Source of the DNA: Escherichia coli
Lineage (GTDB): Bacteria > Pseudomonadota > Gammaproteobacteria > Enterobacterales > Enterobacteriaceae
Assembly (NCBI RefSeq): GCF_003334405.1
Contig: NZ_QOWM01000002.1
DNA length: 64,000 bases
Direction: 5' to 3' (one strand)
Below the pieces are notes generated by a model. It worked only from the letters and a program-made list of their open reading frames with translations. It ran no database searches and was not told the DNA's origin. Of the stretch, positions 1 through 568 are shown piece after piece. The translations under genes were made by a program, and so were the position numbers. Each line of letters opens with the position of its first letter. Position 1 is the stretch's first letter.

Positions 1-108
1 GTAGCGCGGTGGTCCCACCTGACCCCATGCCGAACTCAGAAGTGAAACGCCGTAGCGCCGATGGTAGTGTGGGGTCTCCCCATGCGAGAGTAGGGAACTG
101 CCAGGCAT
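1..108 (+). rRNA. rrfD: 5S ribosomal RNA, 3' 108 nt (5' end cut by window edge)
   Basis: Sequence matches the canonical E. coli 5S rRNA from GTAGCGCGGTGGTCCCACCTGACCCC to CTGCCAGGCAT; a full second copy lies at 234-353. Confidence 0.9.
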
Positions 109-120
109 CAAATTTAGCGT

Positions 121-196
121 GCTGATATGGCTCAGTTGGTAGAGCGCACCCTTGGTAAGGGTGAGGTCCCCAGTTCGACTCTGGGTATCAGCACCA
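121..196 (+). tRNA. thrV: tRNA-Thr (anticodon GGU)
   Basis: 76-nt cloverleaf sequence GCTGATATGGCTCAGTTGGTAGAGC...GGGTATCAGCACCA with anticodon loop CTTGGTAAG; sits between the two 5S genes. Confidence 0.92.
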
Positions 197-233
197 CTTT
201 TTAGGTTAAAGTTCGGCAGATTAGAAAAGAATT

Positions 234-353
234 TGTCTGGCGGCAGTAGCGCGGTGGTCCCACCTGACCCCATGCCGAACTCAGAAGTGAAACGCCGTAG
301 CGCCGATGGTAGTGTGGGGTCTCCCCATGCGAGAGTAGGGAACTGCCAGGCAT
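234..353 (+). rRNA. rrfF: 5S ribosomal RNA, second tandem copy
   Basis: 120-nt sequence TGTCTGGCGGCAGTAGCGCGGTGG...CTGCCAGGCAT, near-identical to the copy at 1-108. Confidence 0.93.
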
Positions 354-360
354 CAAATAA

Positions 361-402
361 AACGAAAGGCTCAGTCGGAAGACTGGGCCTTTCGTTTTAT
401 CT
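361..402 (+). terminator. rrn operon rho-independent terminator
   Basis: GC hairpin AAAGGCTCAGTCGGAAGACTGGGCCTTT followed by a T-run immediately after the 5S gene. Confidence 0.6.
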
Positions 403-532
403 GTTGTTTGTCGGTGAACGCTCTCCTGAGTAGGACAAATCCGCCGGGAGCGGATTTGAACGTTGCGAAGCAACGGCCCGGAGGGTGGCGGGCAGGACGC
501 CCGCCATAAACTGCCAGACATCAAATCAAGCG

Positions 533-568
533 AAAGGCCATCCGAAAGGATGGCCTTTTTGCTTTTCG
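533..568. terminator. Bidirectional terminator between rrn operon and convergent yhdZ
   Basis: Hairpin AAAGGCCATCCGAAAGGATGGCCTTTTTGCTTTTCG with T-run; sits between the convergent rrn operon (+) and yhdZ (-). Confidence 0.55.

Follow-up and report, generated by a model that had tools for sequence, protein, structure and literature searches.

The seven rRNA (rrn) operons of Escherichia coli carry eight 5S rRNA genes by virtue of one extra copy. Two 5S copies are documented in rrnD, as against one in rrnB (PMC4330394). The closest described elements to the ones considered here lie at such operon ends, namely the genes rrA, rrB, and rrF for small RNAs (sRNAs), which are transcribed when T1, the first terminator, is read through (Stenum et al., 2021; PMC8144298). 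They are tRNA-linked repeats (TLRs), a class in which a repeat located 3′ of a stable-RNA gene ends with a copy of the 3′ end of that gene, and whose members also occur after tRNA genes (PMC8144298). Their transcripts, the Rr RNAs, are 173 nt long, with cuts made 3 nt beyond the 5S and, at the other end, 3 nt beyond the repeated 18-nt tail; they are also processed to a ~115-nt form, have a half-life of ~2.5 min, and bind Hfq in vitro, as well as CsrA via GGA motifs, the experiments having been done on RrB and on the pooled RrA/B/F signal in K-12 (PMC8144298). For the rrnB copies of the two terminators, the measured termination is quoted as 87% at T1 and 100% at T2 (Orosz et al., 1991, as cited in PMC8144298). 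Here we analyze a 64,000-nt stretch of E. coli DNA (contig NZ_QOWM01000002.1 of the RefSeq assembly GCF_003334405.1), hereafter the window, whose positions 1-568 almost certainly represent the distal (3′) end of the rrnD operon, with the order rrfD-thrV-rrfF followed by terminators and rrF. The arrangement of this tail is already known and has been textbook material for decades; it is ordinary, each of its elements falling into a described family, and constitutes no new kind of system, and the survey of the presence and absence of rrF and the conversion-like tract that we report are modest additions to the known rrnD end.

The tandem 5S genes at the end of rrnD

The window opens on the plus strand, on which all features below lie unless stated otherwise, inside the first 5S rRNA gene, rrfD (1-108), represented by nt 13-120 only, with its first 12 nt lying beyond the window edge (MG1655 numbering, with 120-nt genes). 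It is identical to MG1655 rrfD and is recovered by the Rfam 5S model (RF00001, cmscan) as a 5′-truncated match at 1-106 (71.8 bits). After a 12-nt spacer comes thrV (121-196), a tRNA-Thr(GGU) gene matching MG1655 thrV at 76 of 76 positions (ARAGORN anticodon GGT; Rfam tRNA match at 121-193, 70.7 bits), and after another 37 nt the second, complete 5S rRNA gene rrfF (234-353, following the MG1655 rrfF annotation), which is matched by the full Rfam model (236-351, 89.1 bits). Both 5S scores exceed the RF00001 gathering score of 38, and both spacers have the same lengths as in MG1655. The chromosomal locus is marked by yhdZ (582-1340, minus strand), a 252-aa open reading frame (ORF) convergent with rrnD and annotated in the matching records as the ATPase of an ATP-binding cassette transporter. 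In megablast searches of 5426 complete E. coli genomes, the region has an rrn operon on one side and the convergent yhdZ/yhdY on the other, a neighbourhood shared by thousands of these genomes, with the features annotated as rrf, tRNA-Thr, and rrf, and the whole window is collinear with MG1655 from 3423775 down to 3358668. In ZF34, A14, and DH10B, the closest genomes, a 23S rRNA gene lies immediately upstream of the first 5S of rrnD. A preceding sequence-only reading of this DNA had recognized two 5S copies around a tRNA-Thr, the first of them cut by the window edge, and had attributed the arrangement to one of the E. coli rrn operons: the former is borne out by cmscan, ARAGORN, and the MG1655 alignment, and the operon is identified as rrnD by the base-for-base MG1655 match together with the yhdZ/yhdY flank.

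That reading had also raised the possibility that the duplication is an artefact, with a single 5S gene on the true chromosome and a second copy made by the assembler, and had suggested aligning the two. The alignment is what such an artefact might produce, with window positions 1-113 being 100% identical to 246-358, i.e., over 113 nt from 5S nt 13 to 5 nt beyond the mature end; moreover, the window opens inside the first copy, at the misjoin point of one public record (see below). Against this stands the distribution of the junction itself. A 156-nt query that runs from the 5S tail through thrV and the unique spacer into the head of the following 5S is matched at a coverage of at least 80% in 5394 of the 5426 complete genomes, including the finished MG1655 and DH10B, and the features are always annotated as rrf, tRNA-Thr, and rrf, so that the single 5S gene is not what complete genomes hold at this site. 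The 5S-tRNA-Thr-5S order was likewise found in 105 assemblies across Enterobacterales in an exact-pattern scan with one genome per species, in genera that include Escherichia, Salmonella, Citrobacter, Enterobacter, Klebsiella, Kosakonia, Pantoea, Erwinia, Serratia, Yersinia, and Dickeya. The two copies also differ at nt 3, to which relatives add differences at nt 12 and nt 117, and a compensatory pair is involved: helix I of rrfF comprises nine pairs in the cmscan alignment, of which nt 3 (U) and nt 117 (G) form a U.G wobble in the window, and across 77 species loci the same pair of the distal 5S is U-A in 47, C-G in 29, and U.G in one. Since this pair is kept by compensatory change, the distal 5S would appear to be a functional gene. 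A two-copy rrnD is, in addition, documented in the literature (PMC4330394). An assembler-made second 5S is hence a vanishingly small probability in our estimation, and on these comparisons the population data exclude the artefact reading of the tandem.

The seven-fold rrn repeat is a different matter. The window begins at 5S nt 13, which immediately follows the position that tells rrfD and rrfF apart. In the TOP10 record NZ_CP080620.1, a 71-nt IS5 end inside gatB is joined to the 5S at exactly the base of window position 1, a junction unique among the 5426 genomes, and in the Origami2-DE3 record NZ_CP084529.1 an inverted rrnA end is joined to the 23S-5S spacer. Both junctions look like misjoins at repeats in assemblies deposited as complete (the observations come from loci L001, 6430-6510, and L120, 1-300, of our set). 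At the species level, no more than 300 nt of sequence precede the first 5S tail in 83 of the 105 loci, which we read as contigs ending at the rrn repeat. The assembly hazard that the sequence-only reading had ascribed to the repeated 5S thus applies to the rrn repeat as a whole, as the misjoins and the starts of these 83 loci indicate, and does not extend to the tandem 5S, which is bridged via the unique thrV and spacers. The boundary of the rrn repeat is the break point of draft assemblies and the misjoin point of some public records presented as complete.

The T1-rrF-T2 module and its 168-nt unit

Downstream of rrfF lies T1 (357-409), a 20-bp hairpin (357-400) followed by a U-rich tail (−32.6 kcal/mol, z = −8.8) and homologous to the T1 of rrnB and rrnA. 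The second terminator, T2 (528-567), has a perfect 11-bp core (533-558) with a GAAA loop and a U-run reaching ~566 (−24.4 kcal/mol, z = −5.9), and is homologous to the T2 of rrnB and rrnA and to the single terminator of rrnG. A terminator scan recovers plus-strand intrinsic terminators at 357-400 and 532-559, with 1.5 sites expected in shuffled sequences. Between T1 and T2 lie three stem-loops belonging to rrF, at 436-458 (−13.7 kcal/mol, z = −4.4), 461-475 (short; −7.2 kcal/mol, z = −2.3), and 485-507 (−19.0 kcal/mol, z = −4.2), the first and the last of which present a GGA motif in the loop (447-449 and 495-497, respectively) as candidate CsrA sites. Because 354-572 as a whole folds at z = −9.7 relative to shuffles, the region holds far more structure than expected by chance. 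Four hairpins had been listed from the sequence beforehand (361-402, 436-458, 486-504, and 533-568); all four are real, with coordinates that were off by a few bases and with the stem-loop at 461-475 left out. By the homologies given above, they are the T1/T2 dual terminator and the rrF that it encloses, an identity that the earlier reading had not recognized. In an alignment of the K-12 operon ends, the module of T1, interval, and T2 is common to rrnA, rrnB, and rrnD; rrnE is different, and in rrnG a T2-type hairpin directly follows the 5S. T2 is also palindromic, and the scan calls it a minus-strand terminator as well, at a distance of 16-23 nt from the stop codon of yhdZ (582-584), with the stem end at 23 nt; given this symmetry, it probably also terminates the convergent yhdWXYZ transcript.

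The rrF gene itself occupies ~357-529 (173 nt), with coordinates transferred from the published S1 mapping of RrB. It starts 3 nt after rrfF and before the last terminator, which is the location prescribed for a TLR, and its identity to MG1655 rrA (171 of 173 positions) and rrB (170 of 173) lies above the >98% expected of an rrF gene. Its five GGA motifs are at 433, 447, 452, 480, and 495, with those at 447 and 495 falling within hairpin loops. The defining direct repeat is formed by the 18-nt tail of the 5S: the true rrfF 3′ end at 341-358 (AACTGCCAGGCATCAAAT), which takes in the RNase E site located 3 nt beyond the mature end, recurs at 509-526 (AACTGCCAGACATCAAAT). The two copies are identical at 17 of 18 positions in the window, versus 18 of 18 in MG1655 and the closest genomes, and the match extends over 509-538 versus 341-370 at 90%. 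The copy at 509-526, which the earlier reading had overlooked along with the stem-loop at 461-475, is the third 5S tail within the window, and the 150 nt that separate it from the copy at 341-358 agree with the published distance. Rfam 15 has no family for RrA/B/F at the gathering level. A partial local match to the RtT RNA family (RF00391) at 440-483 scores 17 bits versus a gathering score of 45, and rrF is accordingly not a member.

A repeated 5S tail downstream of two 5S genes invites the idea that the T1-T2 interval is a third 5S gene in decay, i.e., what is left of a 5S-X-5S duplication after its body drifted. The interval does end in the repeated 18 nt of the 5S tail, and the terminator foot that comes next is 90% like the one after the real 5S; its long closing helix (401-416/508-527) recalls helix I of the 5S, and its 5′ flank, TTTGTCGGTG, is similar to TTTGTCTGGCGG. 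However, the interior (417-505) aligns to the 5S no better than shuffled sequences, 84% of which score as well, no 5S match is found in the interval even at expectation values (E) of up to 10, and the same kind of tail duplication follows tRNA genes in the TLR class (PMC8144298). We therefore consider a decayed 5S improbable. The duplicated 5S material in the interval is limited to the 18-30-nt tail and the terminator foot.

The 18-nt repeats further coincide with the end points of an insertion/deletion polymorphism at rrnD. There is a short rrnD allele in which the second 5S runs directly into T2 and exactly 168 nt (window positions 341-508, one repeat unit) are absent; in strains with this allele, the counterpart of 509-526 is the real rrfF 3′ end. 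Long alleles were counted with positions 300-640 as the query, for which only the long rrnD allele can exceed 80% coverage; queries spanning 200-575 and 121-700 are unsuitable for allele counts, on account of the rrnA/rrnB copies or a coverage of exactly 80%. By this measure, 3241 of the 5426 complete E. coli genomes (59.7%) have the long rrnD allele and ~40% the short one. The unique interior of rrA/B/F (402-508) is found at any location in 3946 of the 5426 genomes by megablast and in 3984 of the 5426 by sensitive blastn, with a median of two copies. Beyond E. coli, the short form occupies rrnD in E. albertii, E. whittamii, Escherichia sp. ESNIH1, and Salmonella arizonae/diarizonae, and the long form is present at the rrnD locus of Citrobacter youngae and a Kluyvera (the loci examined for the unit were L011, L012, L014, L058, L045, and L087, with the short alleles L011 and L012 aligned to the window). 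The direction of change may be either a gain via recombination with rrnA/rrnB or a loss between the 18-nt repeats. We found no report of the polymorphism of this unit in the examined papers that mention tRNA-linked repeats.

Clustered substitutions in the 5S-T1-rrF repeat

The copy of this unit in the window carries five clustered substitutions relative to MG1655, DH10B, ZF34, and A14, at 350, 364, 393, 420, and 427, all toward the rrnA/rrnB state. They are the only differences between the window and these four genomes in the first 4 kb. The states G350, G364, C393, G420, and T427 all equal those of MG1655 rrnA, and the rrnD-specific states at 236, 518, and 527 are kept. Positions 364 and 393 form a compensatory pair in the T1 stem; position 350 is nt 117 of the 5S, where the change converts the native U3-A117 pair to U.G.

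The background in which the cluster sits is otherwise unexceptional. Over positions 3000-27900, the window matches many wild isolates at 100% identity (ZF34/ZF31 from swine, A14 from an opossum, and several chicken strains) and shows scattered differences from K-12, at ~1 per 3 kb. Over positions 1-1400 the sole 100% match is the TOP10 record, from which the window departs further on at 4668, 5999, and 6450, with DH10B and MG1655 differing at the same scattered sites. These three differences, together with the 25-kb identity to wild isolates, rule out K-12 itself as the background, which by these comparisons is that of a natural close relative of K-12. The scattered differences are not sequencing errors either, being the common allele in natural relatives.

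The cluster is either a recent gene conversion or an artefact of polishing. In the former case, a tract of at least 78 nt within 326-517 would have been copied from rrnA (rrnB in some strains) into rrnD. That rrn operons evolve in concert through gene conversion is established knowledge, and a donor tract would account for five sites in the rrnA state flanked by the retained rrnD sites 236, 518, and 527, on a background that otherwise shows 100% identity with ZF34 and A14 at positions 1-4000 and 3000-27900. Comparable mosaics are seen in A134_1EC, where the upstream 23S is normal, and in a hybrid assembly of J53. Yet the window also shows the majority state among the repeat copies at every informative site, as would be expected from mis-mapped polishing reads; the resulting U.G at nt 3:nt 117 of the 5S has a counterpart in just one of the 77 other species loci; at least 99% identity over 200-575 is seen in only 17 of 5500 records; and two of the records sharing the allele contain obvious misjoins at repeats. 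We thus put a real recent conversion at somewhat less than an even chance.

The same majority rule is what recommends the artefact, in which reads from the near-identical rrnA and rrnB copies would have outvoted those from rrnD within the 5S-T1-rrF repeat. The start of the window at 5S nt 13 resembles a contig boundary at the edge of a repeat, 83 of the 105 other-species loci begin no more than 300 nt from this point, misjoins at repeats are present in the TOP10 and Origami2 records carrying the allele, and the finished DH10B genome has the MG1655 allele. On the other side, T427 and A518, which are 91 nt apart, would occur together in no read if the allele were false, so that a pure large-k de Bruijn assembly could not have made it, and the natural isolate A134_1EC, with an intact operon, has a similar mosaic. 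We judge the chances that polishing generated the cluster to be evenly balanced. Variant calls inside the 5S-T1-rrF repeat, including the present five, are untrustworthy without spanning reads.

Expression, flanking features, and comparison with known operon ends

Gene order, terminator structures, and family identity were taken from the sequence, and the processing steps from knowledge of rrn operons and from the published work on the Rr RNAs (PMC8144298). Combining these, we propose that transcription from the P1/P2 promoters of rrnD, far upstream, would yield one long precursor carrying the whole 5S-thrV-5S-rrF tail, in which RNase E would cut 3 nt on either side of each 5S, with exonucleases finishing the ends, and RNase P and 3′ trimming would free the tRNA-Thr. 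By analogy to rrnB, T1 would halt most polymerases, and the fraction that reads through would give the short-lived RrF (PMC8144298). RNase E, acting on the repeated 5S tail, would generate the 3′ end of RrF, and the GGA loops of RrF, to go by RrB, might bind CsrA, and the RNA also Hfq, in vitro (PMC8144298). T2, again as in rrnB, would then halt the remaining polymerases. A promoter scan of window positions 1-1500 found no sigma-70-like promoter, and co-transcription fits with the lack of a promoter-like site in that interval. A separate promoter for thrV or rrfF was considered and set aside, as 1-1500 has no sigma-70-like site and the gap between the first 5S and thrV is only 12 nt.

Several points weigh against reading these 568 nt as a co-transcribed rrnD end with an sRNA of consequence. 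The 23S, the 16S, and the promoters of rrnD are outside the window, the attachment of the first 5S to the operon being drawn from related genomes, and a suggestion contrary to the co-transcription of thrV/rrfF has been published (PMC5179076). The phenotypes of the Rr RNAs are modest, with a role in vivo that is weak by the authors' own account (PMC8144298), and ~27% of the complete E. coli genomes are without any rrA/B/F-type sequence. Since these genomes are devoid of every copy, the sRNA function would be dispensable at best. That so many natural E. coli do without an Rr sRNA bears on the physiological weight of the RrA/B/F hypothesis. The ~27% absence also fits poorly with the published claim of high conservation of rrA/rrB/rrF.

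We accordingly offer, with confidence and doubt in equal measure, the proposal that the 168-nt unit, which the nearest sister species lack at rrnD, is a gain/loss cassette bounded by the 18-nt repeats, such that the proposed growth-rate-coupled CsrA/Hfq sRNA would be accessory and driven by recombination, and the window copy would represent a fresh rrnA-to-rrnD conversion on a background without other changes. If this cassette proposal holds, the Rr sRNA would be an accessory and not a conserved trait. The T1-rrB-T2 module is the standard ‘rrnB terminator’ (‘rrnB T1T2’) of cloning vectors. The RNA encoded by this module binds CsrA and Hfq in vitro (PMC8144298).

Elsewhere in the window, a few differences from MG1655 merit recording. 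The yhdW gene (3710-4735, minus strand) is an intact 341-codon ORF with a T at 4668 that MG1655, DH10B, and the TOP10 record lack; it is intact because this T removes the frameshift behind the K-12 pseudogene. The tldD-yhdP intergenic region (31384-31798) holds a tandem array of a 91-nt unit of the repetitive extragenic palindromic (REP) type, in 4.5 copies with four matches to the Rfam family naRNA4 (RF02564), and this array is one unit shorter than in MG1655. At 57114-57117 the IS5R element that interrupts yhcE in MG1655 is absent, leaving a clean empty site with a 4-nt overlap. At 59857, a T-run is one base shorter than in MG1655 (position 3362812, at the very start of yhcD, fimbrial usher); this deletion may shift the annotated yhcD frame or may be a homopolymer error.

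Among known operon ends, that of MG1655 rrnD (rrfD b3274, thrV b3273, rrfF b3272, and yhdZ) is alike in genes, order, spacers, terminators, and flank, and window positions 1-700 are identical to it except at 350, 364, 393, 420, and 427. One of these differences places G at nt 117 of rrfF versus A in MG1655, the two 5S copies of the window being therefore the same from nt 13 onward. The RtT RNA of the tyrT operon falls by definition into the same TLR class, although rrF is no member of RF00391. Expression and protein binding have been measured on RrB. With the T1-rrA-T2 and T1-rrB-T2 ends of rrnA and rrnB the window shares the 5S tail and T1, then a structured ~110-nt interval containing five GGA motifs, and after it the 18-nt tail repeat and T2; the rrnD module differs in following a second 5S, in keeping the rrnD-specific A518 and C527, and in having a T2 loop of GAAA versus UGAC. 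The short rrnD allele and the rrnG end, finally, display the same 5S tail and T2 hairpin as the window, to which the window adds the 168-nt unit of the tail, T1, and the rrF interior.

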